Source: an archaeon (GTDB lineage Archaea; Asgardarchaeota; Thorarchaeia; Thorarchaeales; Thorarchaeaceae). Taken from it: DNA of 32,000 nucleotides. Where the stretch lies: positions 1 through 32,000 of the forward strand of contig JAJRZD010000120.1 of assembly GCA_024275415.1 (NCBI GenBank), written 5' to 3'. Of this stretch, positions 2,979 to 18,119 are shown piece by piece; within the stretch, counting starts at the first letter, position 1, and every line of letters begins with the position of its first letter. The position numbers and the translations under genes were made by a program. The notes under the pieces are model-generated. The model had not been told where the DNA came from and ran no database searches. It worked only from the letters and a program-made list of their open reading frames with translations.

Positions 2979-3527
2979 TCACACTTCACTTTGCGAGCGC
3001 TTATCCACCAAGGTCTTGGCGAGTTCCTCAAATATGTCAACAATGCCTTCACCAGTCTTTGCAGAACTCTCCAGATATGGCATCCCATGCTCATCTGCGA
3101 ACTTTCTGCCCTCTGAAGGCTCGATGACACGGTCTGGGAGGTCAGTCTTGTTTGCGACAAGGACGAGTGGAATCTGCTTTCCAATAGCCTTCTCAAGCTC
3201 CCGCAGCCATTCTTCCAGGACGATGAATGTGCGGCGCCGGGTCACATCATAGACAAGGATACCACCACTGGAACCACGGTAGTACATCGGACGAAGTATC
3301 TGGAACCGTGACTGTCCTGCAACATCCCAGATCTGCAATTTGACCGTATAGCGCGACCCAGAGTTGTCTGTAATATCGATATTCTTTACAGCGAACTGAG
3401 AGCCAATCGTGGTCTTGTAGTCAGTTCTGAAAAATCCATGTGAGAATCGAGTCACGACAGCGGTCTTTCCTACTGCTCCTTCGCCAAGCACGACGATTTT
3501 GAACAAAAAATCATAGCTGGAACTCAT
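2979..3527 (-). CDS. Rab-like small GTPase (Ras superfamily; eukaryotic signature protein)
   Basis: G1 GEGAVGKT, G2 T (TTIG), G3 WDVAGQ, G4 NKTD, G5 SSAK. RabF-like IGSQF, KLQIW, RFQIL, YYRGS, LVYDVT. Confidence 0.95.
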   Translation of the reverse strand: MSSSYDFLFKIVVLGEGAVGKTAVVTRFSHGFFRTDYKTTIGSQFAVKNIDITDNSGSRYTVKLQIWDVAGQSRFQILRPMYYRGSSGGILVYDVTRRRTFIVLEEWLRELEKAIGKQIPLVLVANKTDLPDRVIEPSEGRKFADEHGMPYLESSAKTGEGIVDIFEELAKTLVDKRSQSEV

Positions 3528-4643: not shown

Positions 4644-6020
4644 ATGACAGGCAAGCTCTTTGGAACCACTGGAGTCCGAAAATTGTATGGAGAAGGGTTC
4701 ACGCTGGACATGGCACTTGACCTTGGGAAAGCAGTTGGTACGTACCTTAGAGAAGGCACCATTCTCTTAGCAAGGGATGCCCGAACCACTGGGAAGATGG
4801 TGGCCGACTCATTGTGTGCCGGAATAGTGTCTACCGGAGTCAATGTAAAACGCGCAGGAGTCATCCCCACACCGACACTGGCATTCCTAGCGAAGAAACT
4901 CGGGCTTTCAGCAGGGATAATGGTGACTGCCTCTCACAATCCCCCTGAATACACAGGTGTGAAGTTCTGGTCAGGGGACAGCATGGGCTTCACACCGGAT
5001 ATGGAGGCAGAGATAGAGAGGATATACGAGTCAAAAGAGTTCAAGGTAGCCGATTGGAGTTCACTAGGGGATATATCGCGAATCGACAACGGCGCAGAGA
5101 TTCACATCGAGGAACTCTTGAAACAGTGTGATGTCAAGAAGATCCGGAGCAAACAGTATCATGTCATCGTAGACCCGGGAAACGGAGCGGCCTGTGTGCT
5201 CACACCATACCTCATGCGGGAGTTAGGGTGCAAGGTGATAACCATCAATGGACAGCTCGATGGACATTTCCCAGGCAGGAGGTCTGAGCCTGAAGAGGAA
5301 ACGCTTGGCGACCTTATCAAACTGGTCAAGGATACAGCAGCGAACTTAGGTATCGCCCATGATGGTGATTCGGATAGAGTTGTGTTCGTCACAGAAAAAG
5401 GAGAGGTGGTTCGTGGTGACCGCACTATCGCCCTGTTTGCACGAAATGCGTTGGGAATAAGCAGGTCAAAGAAAATCATTACCACCGTGGACAGCTCAAA
5501 GGTCTTGGACGAGGTCGTTTCAGAGGTTGGAGGATCTACAGAAAGAACCCCTGTTGGCGACATCCAAGTGGCGGTCAAGATCAAAGAAACCGATGCAGTC
5601 CTTGGGGGCGAGGCGTGTGGAGTATTCATATTCCCTGAGTTCCACTTGGCTCCGGAGCCATTTCTTGCAGCATGTAAGATACTTGAGATGATGGCAGAGT
5701 CTGACCGGAGCTTCGGTGACCTGATTTCCGAAATCCCAATTTATCCGCTGAAGAAGACGAAACTGGCAGTTCCGAACGATAAGAAAGCCACGGTCATGAA
5801 TGCCCTTACGGAAAGCTTGCCAAAAGCTCTTGGTGATGTCAAAGAGGTCTTGACCGTGGATGGACTCGGCATCTCACTGACACAGGGGTGGGTTCTCGTG
5901 AGACCTTCTGGTACTGAGCCTGTCATTCGTATAACCTGTGAGGCGCCTACGGTGGAGATAGTAGAGGATATATTAGAACGCGCAAAGAAAGAAGTTGAAT
6001 CAATAATAGGCGATTCATGA
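4644..6020 (+). CDS. glmM: Phosphoglucosamine mutase / phosphomannomutase-phosphoglucomutase
   Basis: LFGTTGVR, phosphoserine loop TASHNP, metal loop DGDSDR, sugar loop GGEACG, C-terminal VRPSGTEP. Substrate specificity not provable from motifs. Confidence 0.9.
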   Translation: MTGKLFGTTGVRKLYGEGFTLDMALDLGKAVGTYLREGTILLARDARTTGKMVADSLCAGIVSTGVNVKRAGVIPTPTLAFLAKKLGLSAGIMVTASHNPPEYTGVKFWSGDSMGFTPDMEAEIERIYESKEFKVADWSSLGDISRIDNGAEIHIEELLKQCDVKKIRSKQYHVIVDPGNGAACVLTPYLMRELGCKVITINGQLDGHFPGRRSEPEEETLGDLIKLVKDTAANLGIAHDGDSDRVVFVTEKGEVVRGDRTIALFARNALGISRSKKIITTVDSSKVLDEVVSEVGGSTERTPVGDIQVAVKIKETDAVLGGEACGVFIFPEFHLAPEPFLAACKILEMMAESDRSFGDLISEIPIYPLKKTKLAVPNDKKATVMNALTESLPKALGDVKEVLTVDGLGISLTQGWVLVRPSGTEPVIRITCEAPTVEIVEDILERAKKEVESIIGDS

Positions 6021-6473: not shown

Positions 6474-6481
6474 CTTTATAG
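6474..6481 (+). promoter_or_regulatory. Putative TATA box for the 6525 gene
   Basis: CTTTATAG about 44 bp upstream of ATG 6525 in an AT-rich intergenic region. Confidence 0.45.
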
Positions 6482-6524: not shown

Positions 6525-6923
6525 ATGGGCGATGAAGAAGATTTCATTATGGAAGAGTTCGAGTGGGCCCTGAAAGATCCTACCGAAGAGAAACTGAGAC
6601 AGCTTGGAGAAGTAGTCAGTATTATAACTGGGAAGCTCGTTGAAGCCTTCGGCCAGTTAGAGAAGCGTCTGGATGATATCGAAGGTCAAGTTTCACAACT
6701 GGGTTCTAGGATTGACTCCTTAAGTAGTAAAATTGCGTCTGGAGCGGTGGCAGCAAGTCCCTCAGCAGCCGCAGATGCAGCTCCGGCAATGGCCTCTGCC
6801 CCGATTCCAAAGGCACCCTCTCCGAAACCTGCTGGGGGTGGCGGGATGAGCATGATGGGCGAACTCAAAGCACTGCTTGCAGCTAGAAGGGCAAAGGCAG
6901 ACAGCGGGACAGATTCCGGCTAG
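6525..6923 (+). CDS. Small protein: coiled coil + Ala/Pro-rich linker + C-terminal Ena/VASP-FAB/WH2-like helix (putative actin-binding)
   Basis: Clean heptads L-EKR-L-DD-I-EGQ-V-SQ-L-GSR-I-DS-L-SSK-I; linker APIPKAPSPKP; GGGGMSMMGELKALLAARRAKA. Confidence is for the CDS; function is inference. Confidence 0.8.
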   Translation: MGDEEDFIMEEFEWALKDPTEEKLRQLGEVVSIITGKLVEAFGQLEKRLDDIEGQVSQLGSRIDSLSSKIASGAVAASPSAAADAAPAMASAPIPKAPSPKPAGGGGMSMMGELKALLAARRAKADSGTDSG

Positions 6924-7597
6924 ATAAGCGATTTCACACTGTTTCGAGGGTAGAATGGCCCTGCGTGGAAAGGCATCTCGATAGTGAATGCTTCCGCCCG
7001 CTGACATCCGGCCTGAACACCACGGAGAAGCGTCCGAACATCATAGAAACGCGGATAGAATCGGTTTGCTTTTCTGATTTGAGATTCATGACTGCATAGT
7101 GCATTCAGGGCAATATCATACGACTCGGTAATGTCCACAAGCACATGGGGTCGGGACAGAAGGCTGTTTATCTCCATATGGTAGATTCGTTCGACCCTGT
7201 GGGCATCCTCAAAGATTGTGGTATGAGATGCCCATTCCACAGCCTGACTCACAATCTCTGCGCAGGTGGCGTGATTCTGGTTATAGTCATCGCGGGAGTG
7301 AGTGATGAGGATTGAAGGGCGGAAATCCAAAATGGTCTGCACCACTTCATCCTTAACTGTCATGTCTATTGCAAAATCATCCCGTATCTTAGTTATGAGA
7401 TTCCTGACACCTAGTTCGTTGCAGGCTGCTCTCATCTCAGCTTCACGGGTTGTATTGCCTGTCAGACATAGCACATCAATGGGAACACCTCGCATGGTAT
7501 GAGAGGCAATAGTTCCTCCGGCCCCAAGACTTTCGTCATCAGGATGGGCGCAGACTACCAGAATAGATTGATCCATAGGCTCGGAACCCCATGTCAT
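6920..7597 (-). CDS. bshB: PIG-L/LmbE family deacetylase, probable BshB (GlcNAc-malate deacetylase); start at 7597 or 7576
   Basis: CAHPDDESLGAGGT motif, REAEMRAACNELGV, ALCSHESQ, AEAF; divergent from bshA-bshC. Confidence 0.82.
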   Translation of the reverse strand: MTWGSEPMDQSILVVCAHPDDESLGAGGTIASHTMRGVPIDVLCLTGNTTREAEMRAACNELGVRNLITKIRDDFAIDMTVKDEVVQTILDFRPSILITHSRDDYNQNHATCAEIVSQAVEWASHTTIFEDAHRVERIYHMEINSLLSRPHVLVDITESYDIALNALCSHESQIRKANRFYPRFYDVRTLLRGVQAGCQRAEAFTIEMPFHAGPFYPRNSVKSLI

Positions 7598-7685
7598 TCT
7601 AATCAATATTTGCTATCGAAGAAAAATGTCTTGACCATTTGCCTTAAAGGGGAAATCCTCATCCTCGATTAATAGGTCGTTTAGC

Positions 7686-8852
7686 GTGAGAATTGGCGTC
7701 AACCTATACCCTTCCGTCGGCGGTTCTGGATATCTTGCTACAAGACTTGGACAACACCTTGCTGAAAGGAATCACATCATCCATTTCATCACCTACCAGC
7801 GTCCGTTCTCTTTGATGTGGGAACAGACTCGTGGGGTCTACGTTGACCTCGTAGATAGCTTCGATTATCCACTCTTCAAGAATATTGGATCCCCCTATAC
7901 AATGGCTCTGACCTCTAAGATAGTGAAGTCAGTAAGAGATTCGCATTTGGATCTTATCCATTCTCATTATGCCATCCCACATGCGATGTCTGCATTCATG
8001 GCAAGGGAAATTACAGGGACACCCTATGTCGTGACTCTGCATGGGTCTGATGTCCATACACTCGGGACTGACCCCGCCTACAAACCGGTCGTGAAGCATA
8101 CCGTGGAGCAGGCTGATGCGGTGACATGCGTTTCAGAGTACCTCCGGGAGAAGGCACAGAATGATCTTGGCATCGAGCGTGATATCCATGTGATTCCGAA
8201 CTTCATCGATACTCGAAGGTTCACGCATCGCAGCGGAATCAGACTTGTGGTCGAGAGCGGCTGTGTGTCCTTGCGATCCGAGGAAGATGTCAGAGATATA
8301 GCACCTGATGAACGTGTCCTGTTCCATGCCTCGAATTTTAGGAGAATCAAAAGGGTTGTCGAGCTAATCGAGATCATGCGTATCGTTGTGGATCATTACC
8401 CGAAAGCAAGATTGATTATCGCTGGGGATGGCCCTACACGAATCGAGGTTGAACGCACAATCGAGAAGCTGGATCTTTGTAACAATGTCCATCTGCTGGG
8501 AATCAAGAGCAACATCCAGGATATCATGTGTTCGGCGGATATATTCTTGCTCAACTCGACACAGGAAGGGATGCCCTTAGTACTACTTGAAGCCATGGCG
8601 TGTAGTTTGCCCGTCATCACAACACCAGCAGGCGGAATACCGGAACTTGTCCGTCCTGATGTGGATGGAATAGTCACCAAGGACTTTGACAAGGAAAGAT
8701 TTGCAGAGGCGGTAATCAATCTTCTTGAGAACGACTCTCTTAGGAACAAATATGCGAGAGCAGGACGAAAACGTGTGGAAGAGAGTTTATCTGCTGATGA
8801 TATAGTGAGCCAATATGAGAGGGTGTTCGAATCTGTGCTAGAGTCTAGGTGA
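7686..8852 (+). CDS. bshA: N-acetyl-alpha-D-glucosaminyl L-malate synthase (GT4)
   Basis: YPSVGGSG..AT.LG..LA.R.H..HFITY..PF, HSHYAIPHA, TLHGSDV, HASNFRRIKRV, EGMPLVLLEAMA; closely follows the BshA pattern. GTG start. Confidence 0.92.
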   Translation: MRIGVNLYPSVGGSGYLATRLGQHLAERNHIIHFITYQRPFSLMWEQTRGVYVDLVDSFDYPLFKNIGSPYTMALTSKIVKSVRDSHLDLIHSHYAIPHAMSAFMAREITGTPYVVTLHGSDVHTLGTDPAYKPVVKHTVEQADAVTCVSEYLREKAQNDLGIERDIHVIPNFIDTRRFTHRSGIRLVVESGCVSLRSEEDVRDIAPDERVLFHASNFRRIKRVVELIEIMRIVVDHYPKARLIIAGDGPTRIEVERTIEKLDLCNNVHLLGIKSNIQDIMCSADIFLLNSTQEGMPLVLLEAMACSLPVITTPAGGIPELVRPDVDGIVTKDFDKERFAEAVINLLENDSLRNKYARAGRKRVEESLSADDIVSQYERVFESVLESR

Positions 8853-10573
8853 GAAGAATGGTAAAGCCAAGCGTCATGACAGTGTATGAGGAGTGTATCT
8901 GGACAAGCTCGAACCCAGAACTAGGAATACAGCTATATGGAAATCCTCCAAAGTCATTTGGTGCAAACAGGGCGAGAATGATAGCCCTACTTGGTGAATA
9001 TGACAAAACGGGGTGGCACACAGAAGATAGATTGACCAAGCTTGAGAACACTTTGCGACGCATCAATAGAGAATTAGGATCCCTAACTCCAAAAGTTGAG
9101 ATGAACATCAAGAACCTTCACAATGGTGCCATTGAGGCAGGTCATCAGTCTGTGGTTTTGGGAGGACCAGCTTTCATCCTTAACAAGGCCGCAACGGTCG
9201 AACGTGTCGCAGTATTGAATTCTACCGATGAGCACACGTTTGCTTCTTACTTCTTTGTTGCTGACTACGATGTAGTGCAGAACGAATTAACGCACATACG
9301 GACTCCTCTGATGGGTTCTGGTGGAACAGTAGTAACCATCCCCGTCCCGGAGGGGTTCGAGCATTCACCTGTAAGCATGATCCCCTTGCCAGGCTATTCA
9401 TGGTATGAAGAAGCTGAAGAGAGCATAAAAGCAGGCTATAGACCCTTGTTCAAGGTTCTAGAGGGATCCTCGCGATCATTGTTCGAGGAGCGGTTAGAGG
9501 AATGCTTCTCAGTGGTTCGACACGCGTTCATCAACTCGACTTCGTTAGGCGACTGGGCAGCAAGGATTCTTGCAAGTCTCTTCAATATCCATGGAAATCT
9601 AGGATTGCCGTTGCTATCTGCATCAGACGGCGAGATCAGAGAACTATTAGCATTCGGAATGGAGCTTCTTCTGCAAAAAGAGAACAGATTGAAATTCATA
9701 CGTGCTCACGAGTATGCCTCATCATTGATTGAGAGCAGAGGGTATGAAACAGGTATCGGAAGGCGAAGAAACGACTATGTCCCGTTCTATTACGAGTGCA
9801 GCAATGGTTCGTGCAACCGTAGTCGCACGGAACTATCATATATCGATAGAGGAACTCGTGCACTCCTTCAGGGCAAGTGTCCGAGCTGTGGAGAGAAGGT
9901 CGAGATAGAAATCGACGCAGTCTCGCCCGACTTGAGCGAAGTGGCACGTTTCCTTTCACCTCGTGTGGACACTCGACAATTGATTATTGATACCTCGTTT
10001 CCTATCGTGACCCATGTAGGGGGACCGGGAGAAACTGCATATTACGCTCAGGTCATTCCAATTGCCAGAGAGATTGGACATCCGTTCCCGCTCTATGTCA
10101 AGTATCCTCGAGTGTACTATAATACACCATGGAGCGAAAGATTGGGCAAGGAACTTCAAGGGCTTGGCTATCCTATCCTGCACAGGCCAGAGATGTTCAG
10201 GCCCCTTGGAAAAATCGCACGGTTTCGAAAGAAAGGTAGAATCGAGGAGATGAACGAGCATCTTCATGCGTTAGCACAGATCATTGATGAAACATATTTC
10301 AAACTCAATGATGTCTTAAACCGGCTGAGCGATGACATTAATCAAAAGAACCATGCCTCTAGCGAGGAACTGCAGAGGAAGATGGACTTGGAGAGGTATC
10401 TCAGCTGGGCATTTGGACAGTACACAGAAGGAAAGATTTCCCAAGAGTCCTCATGGGCATGGATCGATTGGGCAATCAATGCGGGATTCGCTGACTTGTT
10501 CGGGCCTTATGAACGGGCCTACGTGGAAGGCATGAGGCATGGTGCAAAGTACTTTGTGAACTTCATGGTTTGA
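8849..10573 (+). CDS. bshC: Bacillithiol biosynthesis cysteine-adding enzyme
   Basis: AGHQ...GGP.F...KA (GQQ..GP.Y..K-like), FFVADYD...E, VGGPGETAYYAQ, YVKYPR, C-terminal coiled coil. GTGA overlap with the bshA stop. Confidence 0.85.
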   Translation: MRRMVKPSVMTVYEECIWTSSNPELGIQLYGNPPKSFGANRARMIALLGEYDKTGWHTEDRLTKLENTLRRINRELGSLTPKVEMNIKNLHNGAIEAGHQSVVLGGPAFILNKAATVERVAVLNSTDEHTFASYFFVADYDVVQNELTHIRTPLMGSGGTVVTIPVPEGFEHSPVSMIPLPGYSWYEEAEESIKAGYRPLFKVLEGSSRSLFEERLEECFSVVRHAFINSTSLGDWAARILASLFNIHGNLGLPLLSASDGEIRELLAFGMELLLQKENRLKFIRAHEYASSLIESRGYETGIGRRRNDYVPFYYECSNGSCNRSRTELSYIDRGTRALLQGKCPSCGEKVEIEIDAVSPDLSEVARFLSPRVDTRQLIIDTSFPIVTHVGGPGETAYYAQVIPIAREIGHPFPLYVKYPRVYYNTPWSERLGKELQGLGYPILHRPEMFRPLGKIARFRKKGRIEEMNEHLHALAQIIDETYFKLNDVLNRLSDDINQKNHASSEELQRKMDLERYLSWAFGQYTEGKISQESSWAWIDWAINAGFADLFGPYERAYVEGMRHGAKYFVNFMV

Positions 10574-15045: not shown

Positions 15046-17304
15046 CTAGCGTCCCTGTGCCAAGCGAATCTTGTCCATCATCGAAATGACCTGCTTCTTG
15101 TTATCACCCACGATGACAACAGGAATACTGACAGCGTCAAGTGAAATACCGACGGAAACAGACGCTCTCATTCCGTCCTTTCTAAGAAGAATGTATGAGA
15201 AATCATTCTCGGTCTGGACTCGGATGACCTTCATGCCAGCAGCCATGAGAACACCAAGGACTTTTTTCAGAAGCCGGATCGGATCCACACCCACACTATG
15301 GACAGATTCAACTTCACGGTGCTTCACTTCCGAATCGAACAGGAAACTATGTGATGTAGGATTATATAGCACACTCCTTTGCATCGCCTTGCCTAGAAGG
15401 GATCTTGCTATTGTGGGGAATGACTTGATCTGGATCGAAGATAGGTCAATCTGAGCATCAACGTCATCGCCTACGGGGGACTCGGGAATGTCTGTGATAG
15501 GTTCTGGTTCTTCCTTCTCGGTACGAGGTGCTGGAGTCTCAGTGATATGGAATTCCTGCATCCGCTCCATGAACACCTTCTCAACATACTGTTGCATCCA
15601 GTCATCTAGGATCTTCCAGTCCTCTTCACTCAGTTGGATGGGGGGGCGAGGGACATCAGGTAGCACGTCTTCTATCACTTCTTCCTCTGTCACTTCTTCC
15701 ATGATGTTCTCTTCATATCGTTTCTCTGGAGGCAAAAGTCGTGCAGCTTCGAATAAGCCAGAGAGCCGGTCTGCGCCACCATGTTGCGATACACGAGGGC
15801 GTACCTGCATCAGGAAACCCCGTTTGTTCTCTGTGACCTGATCGAAGACCAACGCCACGCCTTGGGGCAGGCTACTGATGAAGACCTTCTCTTTGAATTG
15901 GTCGAGCATTACGGCGGGCGCTCGTTGATGCAATGCCCTGATATCGCCATCATGTGACAATGAATGGGAGATTATGAGGTCAGCCTGCGAGATGGCATCA
16001 TCAGAAACCGCGGAGGGCTGCTGCGTACAGAGGACAAGGCTGCATCCAAAGCGTCGGCCAAGCTTGGCATATGCAACTATAGCGTCCTTTGCAGGCGTAC
16101 TGCCGGAACGGGGAACCAACGTGTGAGCCTCGTCAATAATGAGCCACGTTGGCGGGAGCTCCTCACGTGCACTTGTCCCGTCATCCGTCCACGCCATCCG
16201 ATATGTCAACACCTGCCTGCACAGCATGTTAGTCAGGATGGCAAGAACGGCCTCTGCATCAGAGCCAAGCGGTGCGACATCAATGATTGTGATCTGTCCT
16301 CCAACCGCTAGGTCTTGGGCACTGGTGCCTCCTTCATAGAATACGCCCAAGCGGTCTGCACTCTTCAAACGTTGTATGAGGGCAGTCCGTGTGGACGCCT
16401 GATAAAGCTCGATTATACGGGGGTGCTTCTCGATGCAGCGGATCATATCCCTGATACTGAAGTCGCGTTTCAGTGAAACTTTTTCGCCATCCTCAAGAAC
16501 ATATCCCTTCCTGACGAACTCGAGGACATCGCTGATCAGATTGTCCATCGTTGTACTGAGTTGTCCGCCTTTCTCGAGGACATAGCCCCAGTCACTTGAG
16601 GTGAGTTCTTTGGGGCTGATTGCCAGTGGATACAGGTTCTCTCGTTTCTTGACATCATCTGGAAGACCCATATAGGTGCTACGAGGAATATATACCGCAG
16701 CCTGTAACCCACAGGCATCGAGACCCCACTTCTCGAGGAGATCCTTCTGCCCCTCGTTCGGATCAGTCATTTGGCGGAACACATCCACAGTGTCGATTAC
16801 AACAGCGGCAACCTCAATCTCCTGTCGTTCCATCGCAAGCGCCAGTTCCTCTGCGATGACACCAAGCGTGTAGCTCTTGCCAGATCCCCTTTTGCCTGCA
16901 ACAAAAAGAACGTGTGGGCTCATCAAGTCGAGATAGACGGGTGTTCCAAAGAGTGATGCTAACACATCATCAGAGGTCTCAGTGACCGCGCCAATCAACC
17001 CCAGACCGAAACGTGGAAACTTCGAATTGAATGATTTTGTGCGACCCAAGATGACTCCCATGTCATTATCAATAAGAAGGGCCAACTCATCCGTGACTCG
17101 GGGATGATACTCAAGTACGTGTTTGGAAAGCAGATTGATCGGCCCCAAGATAGGCTCCTCGCTTGCCTCAGATGGAGTGTCGGTTTCGTCATTTGCTCCG
17201 GGTGGTAGTTCGCGTTCGTCCAAGGAGTACCCCCTTGTTCGAGAGATGACGAAATCCAATAAAGCTTTGGTGGTGGGCACTAATCGAATAATAGCACTCA
17301 GCAA
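15046..17304 (-). CDS. HerA/FtsK-superfamily ATPase (DUF87-type) with acidic/Pro linker and extra C-terminal domain; true start possibly TTG at 17223
   Basis: PVYLD...PHV, Walker A GKRGSGKS, Walker B LIIDEAH, arginine-finger LGRRFG, TQQPS. Confidence 0.88.
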   Translation of the reverse strand: MLSAIIRLVPTTKALLDFVISRTRGYSLDERELPPGANDETDTPSEASEEPILGPINLLSKHVLEYHPRVTDELALLIDNDMGVILGRTKSFNSKFPRFGLGLIGAVTETSDDVLASLFGTPVYLDLMSPHVLFVAGKRGSGKSYTLGVIAEELALAMERQEIEVAAVVIDTVDVFRQMTDPNEGQKDLLEKWGLDACGLQAAVYIPRSTYMGLPDDVKKRENLYPLAISPKELTSSDWGYVLEKGGQLSTTMDNLISDVLEFVRKGYVLEDGEKVSLKRDFSIRDMIRCIEKHPRIIELYQASTRTALIQRLKSADRLGVFYEGGTSAQDLAVGGQITIIDVAPLGSDAEAVLAILTNMLCRQVLTYRMAWTDDGTSAREELPPTWLIIDEAHTLVPRSGSTPAKDAIVAYAKLGRRFGCSLVLCTQQPSAVSDDAISQADLIISHSLSHDGDIRALHQRAPAVMLDQFKEKVFISSLPQGVALVFDQVTENKRGFLMQVRPRVSQHGGADRLSGLFEAARLLPPEKRYEENIMEEVTEEEVIEDVLPDVPRPPIQLSEEDWKILDDWMQQYVEKVFMERMQEFHITETPAPRTEKEEPEPITDIPESPVGDDVDAQIDLSSIQIKSFPTIARSLLGKAMQRSVLYNPTSHSFLFDSEVKHREVESVHSVGVDPIRLLKKVLGVLMAAGMKVIRVQTENDFSYILLRKDGMRASVSVGISLDAVSIPVVIVGDNKKQVISMMDKIRLAQGR

Positions 17305-17336: not shown

Positions 17337-18119
17337 ATGTCAAACACCATCGAGGATGGCTCATACGTTTACATTTTCCTTGATGCGAAGAGGAACTGGA
17401 TAAGAAAAGTCCAAGCTGGGAATAAGTTCCATTCAAACAAGGGTATCATCGATTTTGACGACCTGATCGGACGACCCTTCGGAATACGTGTCCAGAGCCA
17501 TTCGGGAACCATGTTCCAAATACACAAGCCTAGTCAGAATGATATCCAAATCTCAATGGGAAGAAACACACAGATAATCTACCCAAAGGACGCAGCCACA
17601 ATAATCAATGAAACGGGGATATGCTCGGGGTCTCGTGTGGTTGAATCAGGAACTGGTTCGGGATCTCTCACATGGGTGCTCTCAAGAGCCGTTGGTACAA
17701 CAGGACATGTCTACACCTATGAAGTGAGAGAAGACATGTACAATGGGGCAAAGAAGAACCTTGAGCGCTATGCAGACATGGAACGGATAACGATGCACAA
17801 TAAGGACATCCTCGAAGGCATCAACGAGATTGAGGTGGATGCAGTGGTTCTCGATCTGGCGACTCCGTGGCTGTTGGTTGATGAAGCGCACCGTGTCCTG
17901 AAGGCAAGTCACTTCCTCGCAAGCTATAGCCCGACCATTGAACAGGTCATGAAGACCTGCAAAGCCATGCATGAGAGCGGGAAGTGGGGGATGGTCAGAA
18001 CGCTAGAAGTCCTCCAACGAGAAATCATGGTGCGGGAGGGAAAGACCCGTCCTACCACATGGATGGTGGGACACACAGGATACATGACGTTTGCACGTTC
18101 AATGTCAACCGACAAGTAA
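17337..18119 (+). CDS. trmI: tRNA (adenine-N1)-methyltransferase, TrmI/GCD14 family
   Basis: TQIIYPKD, SAM motif VESGTGSGSLT, YEVRE, DAVVLDLATPW, MVGHTGY. Confidence 0.95.
   Translation: MSNTIEDGSYVYIFLDAKRNWIRKVQAGNKFHSNKGIIDFDDLIGRPFGIRVQSHSGTMFQIHKPSQNDIQISMGRNTQIIYPKDAATIINETGICSGSRVVESGTGSGSLTWVLSRAVGTTGHVYTYEVREDMYNGAKKNLERYADMERITMHNKDILEGINEIEVDAVVLDLATPWLLVDEAHRVLKASHFLASYSPTIEQVMKTCKAMHESGKWGMVRTLEVLQREIMVREGKTRPTTWMVGHTGYMTFARSMSTDK

Follow-up and report, generated by a model that had tools for sequence, protein, structure and literature searches.

A widespread, undescribed Asgard coiled-coil protein family whose basic C-terminal helix recurs on Arf/Rag-like GTPases

Introduction

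What does a very small coiled-coil protein with a strictly conserved basic C-terminus do in an Asgard archaeon? The question is raised by a complete gene, encoding 132 amino acids (P0001), at 6525..6923 on the + strand of the window, i.e., the first 32,000 nucleotides of contig JAJRZD010000120.1 from the Thorarchaeaceae assembly GCA_024275415.1. A first-pass annotation, made from the sequence alone, regarded the product as a candidate minimal archaeal Ena/VASP-like actin regulator. Here the gene is treated as the Thorarchaeota representative of an Asgard protein family without a name, and its product is read, tentatively, as an oligomeric adaptor whose arm would present a shared docking or localization helix, most likely at the membrane or cortex.

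The Gene and Its Product

The open reading frame (ORF) list bears out the 132-residue frame proposed for 6525-6923 (+). The gene is real and under purifying selection, a judgment based upon the 330 homologs recovered in a homolog search and upon the ratio of nonsynonymous to synonymous change (pN/pS), which is 0.12-0.38 against 11 Thorarchaeota relatives, with synonymous sites near saturation. It is a single-copy gene in the window's own genome, and a candidate archaeal TATA box (TTTATA; 6475..6480, + strand), read from the sequence, lies 45 nt before the ATG.

The protein was modeled using AlphaFold2 (AF2) with a 41-sequence alignment, and invariance was judged in an alignment of 24 diverse Thor-type members. 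The conserved N-terminal head (residues 1-38; 6525..6638, +) carries the motif FEWALxDPTEEKLRxLGEVVSIITxKL, in which F12, W14, A15, L16, D18, P19, G28, V30, V31, I34, T35, K37, and L38 are the same in 24/24 sequences; AF2 folds it as a helix (residues 3-17), a D18-P19 turn, and the beginning of a long helix. There follows a heptad coiled coil (residues 38-71; 6636..6737, +) with a predicted local distance difference test (pLDDT) score of 93-98, whose heptad pattern is kept while the sequence varies. The near-perfect heptad repeat noticed earlier is upheld by the strict 3-4 spacing of hydrophobic residues (L45, L49, I52, V56, L59, I63, L66, and I70) and by the model, in which one helix spans residues 20-71 (pLDDT 88-98). 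To judge from its sequence, this coil would oligomerize the protein.

The linker (residues 72-109; 6738..6851, +) is rich in Ala, Pro, and Gly, ends in GGGG, is predicted to be disordered (pLDDT 48-64), and contains single prolines only and no poly-Pro tract. Conservation and AF2 define the tail, a basic C-terminal helix (residues 110-127; 6852..6905, +) reading MMGELKALLAARRAKADS; it is modeled at a pLDDT of approximately 82, exhibits a hydrophobic moment of 0.18, and is invariant in the 24 members as M111-G-E-L-K-x-L-L-A-A-R-R122 (consensus MMGELKxLLAARR). The order described in the first-pass annotation, an Ala/Pro linker followed by GGGGMSMMGELKALLAARRAKA (residues 104-125; nt 6834-6899), is congruent with this passage from predicted disorder to helix, as is its remark, supported by sequence and AF2, that the coiled coil is N-terminal to linker and tail, unlike VASP. 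Between the invariant head and tail, the coil and linker are variable.

Family and Distribution

The family is genuine, ancient, and hitherto undescribed; of its parts, only the head and the tail are invariant. The annotation had asked whether homologs abound in actin-free archaea; the named homologs are all "hypothetical protein" entries from Asgard metagenome-assembled genomes, save one labelled Bathyarchaeota. The latter is probably misbinned, since it is found on a contig of 4.1 kb and its sequence is typically Thor-type. A profile search of 400 Asgard genomes located the family in 79/85 genomes of the window's own GTDB family, with weaker matches in many others, and the distant Asgard loci display an identical layout with true poly-Pro tracts. 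Proline runs of four or more residues occur in 29/43 non-Thor members and in 1/123 of the Thor type, the longest run being three or fewer in the other 122/123. The non-Thor tail reads S-[LA]-R-[GSA]-[AS]-[IL]-[MQ]-x-E-L-K-x-L-F-[AS]-[KR]-R-[RK], and E-L-K is retained in 98-100% of 166 family members. A tail-only profile, run on 268 Asgard genomes with a completeness of at least 85%, matched 213 of them in 18/28 GTDB families; tail detection in distant lineages may be incomplete. Conservation of the C-terminal motif among orthologs and across the phylum, which had been proposed as a check, is thus borne out.

No Pfam family, PDB relative, or ESM Atlas cluster names this family, the Atlas returning only its own unnamed clusters, and the literature searched describes nothing resembling it. 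A profile search of 1.84 billion representatives gave the family itself and coiled-coil noise, with no outside match covering both head and tail. Against the PDB, the whole-family profile retrieved generic coiled coils only, mostly trimeric, and the tail profile retrieved designed coils and the N-terminus of twinfilin-2 at an E-value of 0.75. Homology of head plus coil to HSBP1, BRK1, or CCDC53 was considered and rejected: the three profiles match 2/24, 0, and 1 members, respectively, all below the curated cut-offs (E 0.025 for HSBP1), and the 60 best PDB profile matches do not include HSBP1. A longer, fused form was likewise set aside; in the single case, a 472-residue product on one 2.1-kb contig, the family gene is joined to the upstream phosphoglucomutase-type gene, probably through an error of assembly or gene calling, and this shows only that the two genes adjoin in Thor. 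Tandem copies were also seen: GTDB family f17 provides a pair (L017, G124:C202) with ORFs at 327-701 and 781-1215 on the - strand, and two genomes (G127 and G126) have two adjacent copies each (L077 and L078).

The C-Terminal Helix on Other Proteins

The same tail is found on proteins with quite different heads. Five Arf/Rag-like GTPases possess an E-L-K tail: L072 (1492-2727, -) and L073 (199-1623, +) in G147, L085 (1480-2712, -) in G123, and L082 (1492-2775, -) and L088 (1489-2733, -), which are approximately 1.5 kb apart on one contig (G170:C10, ~626.9-628.4 kb). These tail-bearing GTPases consist of 410-475 residues, with an N-terminal extension, a C-terminal coiled coil, and a Lys/Pro-rich arm, the tail being at, or no more than nine residues from, the C-terminus. 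In L072 the whole module, i.e., head helix (SLTDPTLEKVEGLGKIL...), coil, arm, and tail, stands behind the GTPase domain; two paralogs, L048 and L049, have the head in common only. A HEAT-repeat protein (L090, G128) also ends with the tail, and in L081 (306 residues, no assigned domains) it is situated nine residues from the C-terminus. Genome G143 encodes a 697-residue protein with a terminal transmembrane segment in which the motif is internal and follows PPPP; the homologs of this membrane protein lack the motif, which indicates a lineage-specific insertion. Weaker internal matches are present in L087 and L092, the domains of which are unassigned. Amphipathicity is weak in the tail helices, with a hydrophobic moment of 0.18-0.36 and a net charge of +2 to +4, and poly-Asp comes after the tails of MK-D1 and Lokiarchaeum ossiferum.

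Asgard small GTPases have been reported to be without the terminal lipidation cysteines of eukaryotic Rabs (PMC10933270). Without lipid-anchor cysteines another localization device is needed, and a common docking helix at the terminus could plausibly stand in for lipidation. The occurrence of one tail on Arf/Rag-like GTPases and on other heads points to a general docking signal. Some non-Thor tails might be read as a PCNA-interacting protein (PIP) box (Q-x-x-L-x-x-L-F); this was rejected, the Gln being present in 23% only and the nature of the carriers making PCNA an unlikely partner. The window itself contains, 3 kb upstream of the family gene, a Ras/Rab-type small GTPase (2979-3527, -; Pfam Ras, E 2e-49) without the E-L-K tail.

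Proposed Function

The 132-residue protein may represent a small self-associating adaptor, the stand-alone form of an Asgard-specific module with four parts: a helical head, an oligomerizing coiled coil, a flexible Ala/Pro-rich arm, and a near-invariant basic end helix (consensus [ILM]-x-[GSDN]-E-L-K-x-L-[LF]-[AS]-[AKR]-R-[RK]). The end helix would be a docking or localization peptide and not a homolog of the F-actin-binding (FAB) motif of VASP; in Lokiarchaeia, Arf/Rag-like GTPases, a HEAT-repeat protein, and other heads carry this tail on an arm of similar type. By presenting several tails the oligomer would hold itself, together with whatever the head binds, at one conserved cellular site, presumably the inner face of the cell membrane or the cortex, by way of a conserved partner protein or acidic lipids.

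We favor this adaptor because head and tail are invariant while coil and linker vary; because the tail is modular, being shared with GTPases and a HEAT-repeat protein and spread over most of the genomes searched; and because the AF2 model shows a long helix leading through a disordered arm to a helix at the end. Two further reasons are that the L. ossiferum ortholog is abundant yet falls outside the listed rows of an actin co-immunoprecipitation (co-IP) in which membrane-associated proteins are under-represented, and that a gene for a BAR-like protein adjoins the family gene in approximately 30 genomes of GTDB family f22 (both described below).

Several observations weigh against it. The window's own genome has a single instance of the tail, so that its modularity is shown in Lokiarchaeia only, and a search of 43 Thor genomes failed to recover the BAR-like neighbor. 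The BAR-like fold is itself indecisive, with Foldseek E-values of 0.01-0.08 and Z-scores within the range of generic helical bundles. Weak amphipathicity, an invariant Glu, and poly-Asp after some tails are unusual for a direct lipid-binding helix, and the distance of some 390 residues between the motif and the transmembrane segment of the G143 protein speaks against a simple membrane anchor. From the weak amphipathicity and the invariant Glu we surmise that binding to a specific protein, which may sit at the membrane, is a better explanation than contact with lipid alone.

Known systems offer two parallels to the proposed adaptor. Ribosomal stalk proteins P1/P2 and the FtsZ C-terminal peptide similarly combine an oligomerizing domain, a variable disordered hinge, and an invariant terminal peptide that recruits partners; P1/P2 possess a dimerizing head, an Ala/Pro hinge, and a conserved C-terminal peptide, and 2/24 family members weakly match Ribosomal_60s via the hinge. 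There is no homology, however, and the tail here is basic rather than acidic. The hypervariable tails of small GTPases and the helices of MinD and FtsA resemble it in that a flexible linker leads to a basic helix at the extreme C-terminus. Membrane-targeting helices of the MinD/FtsA type are strongly amphipathic, with a basic flank and a usually poorly conserved sequence, whereas the present tail is far better conserved, with a low moment (0.18-0.36), an invariant Glu, and, in some cases, an acidic end.

Alternative Partners of the Tail

It is possible, though somewhat less likely, that the tail docks on some other conserved Asgard hub unrelated to actin or the membrane, or that it binds the family's own head in head-to-tail assembly or autoinhibition. 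Candidate hubs are the MIT domain of Vps4, for which the tail would act like the MIT-interacting motif (MIM) helix of ESCRT-III, a roadblock/longin platform, or a calmodulin-like EF-hand protein. The near-invariant E-L-K and its flanks across the whole phylum suggest a specific protein interface, in keeping with the low hydrophobic moment, and the carriers of the motif include several unrelated heads and a membrane protein in which it is not terminal. Head and tail are, moreover, both invariant and co-occur behind one GTPase. MIT and calmodulin-like domains typically bind helices that are basic and amphipathic. The MIM1 consensus, (D/E)xxLxxRLxxL(K/R), is located in the acidic C-terminal tail of ESCRT-III; set against it, our tail keeps the 4-3 hydrophobic spacing but has E-L in place of the R-L pair, lacks the acidic start, and shows F or L, not K or R, after the last Leu, so that it was rejected as a MIM1. 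No Pfam match to ESCRT-III (Snf7) was obtained for P0001 or the 24 aligned members, and no conserved neighbor indicates ESCRT or EF-hand genes, the neighbors being GlmM-like, BAR-like, and Elf1-like instead.

Comparison with VASP and WH2

The proposal that prompted this work holds that the tail is an actin-binding helix of the WH2/VASP-FAB kind, that the coil gives avidity, and that the protein bundles, elongates, or nucleates Lokiactin filaments; the poly-Pro of Loki-type members would recruit profilin-actin, and the tail on GTPases would be an actin-targeting signal. We consider this doubtful. The human VASP FAB motif comprises residues 259-278 (PMC10340426), and the annotation quoted its sequence correctly. 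An ungapped match of the tail to VASP 263-277 exhibits 7/15 identities (BLOSUM62 score 33) and is preceded by GGGG. To this extent the position-by-position alignment claimed by the annotation stands, but it does not exceed chance: against the VASP core, a score of 34 is reached by two six-frame ORFs of this genome that are unrelated, and 143 of 300 shuffled VASP cores find a match of at least 34 somewhere in the genome. For these reasons the likeness is no better than chance genome-wide, and the motif is too short for a test of homology. What carries weight is how well orthologs conserve the tail, not its likeness to VASP.

Profile searches gave no encouragement either to homology with VASP or WH2. 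WH2 (PF02205) yielded no Pfam match at E-values up to 10 among ten whole proteins and ten isolated tails, the VASP domain had none in whole proteins or isolated tails, and the tail profile recovered no WH2-bearing PDB chain. WH1/EVH1 gave no Pfam match in P0001 or the 24 aligned members, where the N-terminus is the 38-residue helical head; this, with the single prolines of the linker, vindicates the caveats entered by the annotation (no true poly-Pro, no EVH1 domain). The window protein also lacks an LKK[TV] motif and any second G-actin-binding motif (WH2-like, KLRK). The architecture that had been likened to processive actin elongators therefore survives in its coil, flexible linker, and conserved basic helix, but not in any WH2, VASP, or EVH1 profile match. 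As far as can be read from the protein sequences, membership of Ena/VASP or WH2 fails on every defining feature that can be tested.

Ena/VASP EVH2 consists of a Pro-rich region, a G-actin-binding (GAB) site, FAB (259-278), and a tetramerizing coiled coil (PMC10340426). The family resembles it in a short basic helix after a Gly run with the FAB-core identities, a coiled coil, and a Pro-rich linker, true poly-Pro being confined to the non-Thor relatives. It differs in that the window protein is without EVH1, a GAB/WH2 (KLRK) site, or a poly-Pro tract, and in that the coiled coil is C-terminal in VASP and N-terminal here. Likeness to WH2 lies in a short helix whose hydrophobic positions recur every three to four residues and which leads into basic residues, and the beginning of Loki-type tails, R-[GS]-A-[IL]-x-x-E-L, is similar to the WH2 helix; however, L-K-K-[TV] is missing, and the basic cluster falls inside the predicted helix, whereas in WH2 it occupies an extended segment. 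Asgard gelsolins, by comparison, carry WH2-like LKKT motifs (PMC9433394).

Is There a Link to Actin?

Some circumstances favor an actin regulator. Asgard archaea are the only prokaryotes with a regulated eukaryote-type actin (PMC9433394), and the family is confined to them apart from the Bathyarchaeota entry, itself probably misbinned. An actin sharing 58-62% identity with its eukaryotic counterparts is encoded in the window's own genome. The literature to 2026 lists no Asgard actin regulators other than profilins and gelsolins, which agrees with the annotation's statement that no characterized VASP/WH2-type elongator is known from Asgard archaea and leaves a gap that the family could fill. 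Non-Thor tails come after PPPPPG repeats, the Pro-rich-then-WH2-like order of eukaryotic assembly factors, and the BAR-like neighbor recalls the MIM/IRSp53 systems.

Published L. ossiferum proteomics bears directly on this question. The B35 genome (G138) is a single contig of 6,035,313 bp, in which actin and two-domain gelsolins sit where the GNAMCCOK locus numbers predict. Its family member (2,628,799-2,629,257) has 152 residues and three PPPPPGR repeats. Locus tags were mapped by monoisotopic mass: the upstream gene (24.01 kDa) is GNAMCCOK_02218 and a gene 50 ORFs downstream in our own ORF list (53.82 kDa) is GNAMCCOK_02268, and from these two anchors the family gene is GNAMCCOK_02219. This protein was detected in 16/16 proteome columns with a mean log2 intensity of 18.47 (Supplementary Table 2, 10.1101/2025.11.30.690169), approximately rank 400-480 of some 3,061 detected proteins, which puts its abundance close to that of the gelsolins and profilins, ranked by the authors among the 500 most abundant proteins (10.1101/2025.11.30.690169).

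According to the same authors, Lokiactin co-IP significantly enriches actin, five gelsolin-homology proteins, profilin, and an Arf GTPase, and under-represents membrane-associated proteins (10.1101/2025.11.30.690169). The co-IP sheet is sorted by ratio, and GNAMCCOK_02219 is absent among the listed rows, which cover log2 ratios of +10 to -1.06, with 841 lower rows left out. Its failure, in spite of this abundance, to come down with cross-linked actin speaks with moderate force against a stable association with actin, although proteins that bind weakly or compete for the epitope may escape recovery. As a separate observation, the Elf1-like GNAMCCOK_02218 is enriched in this co-IP (log2 ratio 1.36, adjusted p 0.034).

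The distribution of poly-Pro and of the tail also argues against a role in actin regulation. Poly-Pro binding has been reported for the profilins of Thor and Heimdall, and its absence for those of Loki and Odin; poly-Pro in Loki-type but not Thor members is therefore the reverse of what profilin recruitment would predict. Gelsolin (PF00626) was detected in 253 of the 268 genomes used for the tail search, and GTDB families f8 (gelsolin 19/21, tail 1/21), f9 (3/3, 0/3), f10 (5/5, 0/5), f13 (4/5, 0/5), f30 (2/2, 0/2), and f33 (2/2, 0/2) bear gelsolins with little or no detectable tail, whereas f29 is the opposite (gelsolin 0/4 at the Pfam level, tail 4/4). This mismatch reveals that the family is no universal companion of the regulated actin system. 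With the motif at chance level, the ortholog missing from the listed co-IP rows, and the same tail on Arf/Rag-like GTPases and other heads, the core claim of an actin regulator is not sustained. Some other function altogether has, in our estimation, a slim chance.

Gene Neighborhood

The genes beside the family gene differ by lineage, being GlmM-like in Thor, BAR-like in f22, and Elf1-like in f21. Within Thor, the family gene is located after a phosphoglucosamine/phosphomannomutase-type (GlmM-like) gene, at 4644-6020 in the window, and before a bshB/bshA/bshC-like cluster consisting of PIG-L/BshB-like (6920-7606, -), GT4/BshA-like (7686-8852, +), and BshC-like (8849-10573, +) genes. No functional link of these neighbors to the family gene is apparent. 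The cluster (6920-10573) is a complete bacillithiol-type set, bshB being divergent from bshA-bshC, which overlap by 4 nt. The mutase gene stays upstream of the family gene across Thor and in genome G311. Elsewhere in the window, a HerA/DUF87-type ATPase of 752 residues (15046-17304, -) adjoins a GCD14/TrmI-type tRNA methyltransferase (17337-18119, +).

In the Lokiarchaeia of f22 and in G132, the family gene adjoins a gene for a conserved BAR-like protein of 206-211 residues; it is directly downstream of that gene in f22, and the order is swapped in G132. The BAR-like protein is present in 38/40 f22 genomes and 0/43 Thor genomes, and the two genes are adjacent in the approximately 30 genomes for which both coordinates are available, with the exception of G137. 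Representative BAR-like genes are L036 (5299-5919, +), L037 (5183-5815, +), L038 (5218-5853, +), L041 (6504-7136, -), and L035 (5341-5961, -). AF2 models the protein as three long helices (pLDDT 89.5), and its best structural matches are nearly all BAR proteins, headed by arfaptin (Z 13.3, TM 0.61-0.64) and including FAM92A, SNX1, Lsp1/Pil1, amphiphysin, MIM, and IRSp53. MIM/ABBA and IRSp53 join an I-BAR domain to a Pro-rich region and WH2, or use I-BAR to recruit VASP, which is reminiscent of the f22 arrangement of a BAR-like gene directly upstream of a coiled-coil/poly-Pro/basic-helix gene. In f22, however, there are two separate genes, the BAR assignment is a fold likeness only, and the comparison is inapplicable to the window, given the lack of this neighbor among the Thor genomes searched.

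Upstream of the family gene in L. ossiferum and in the MK-D1-like genome G135 is a gene for an Elf1-like zinc-ribbon protein (G138:C1:2628036-2628656, +, GNAMCCOK_02218, 206 residues with a long acidic C-terminal extension; L034:6664-7284, -).

Significance

The family is abundant, widespread over much of the phylum, and undescribed, and the cultured L. ossiferum and MK-D1 both carry an ortholog. Were the E-L-K tail a true actin-binding helix, which we think improbable, the family would supply the filament bundler or elongator missing from Asgard archaea, as either a convergent or an ancestral equivalent of the VASP/WH2 factors. Arf/Rag-like GTPases and other proteins would then be directed by this tail to the Lokiactin cytoskeleton, acting with a BAR-like protein as membrane partner. 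A terminal helix common to Arf/Rag-like GTPases would accordingly be either part of a missing cytoskeletal factor or an unnoticed localization signal of Asgard signaling proteins.

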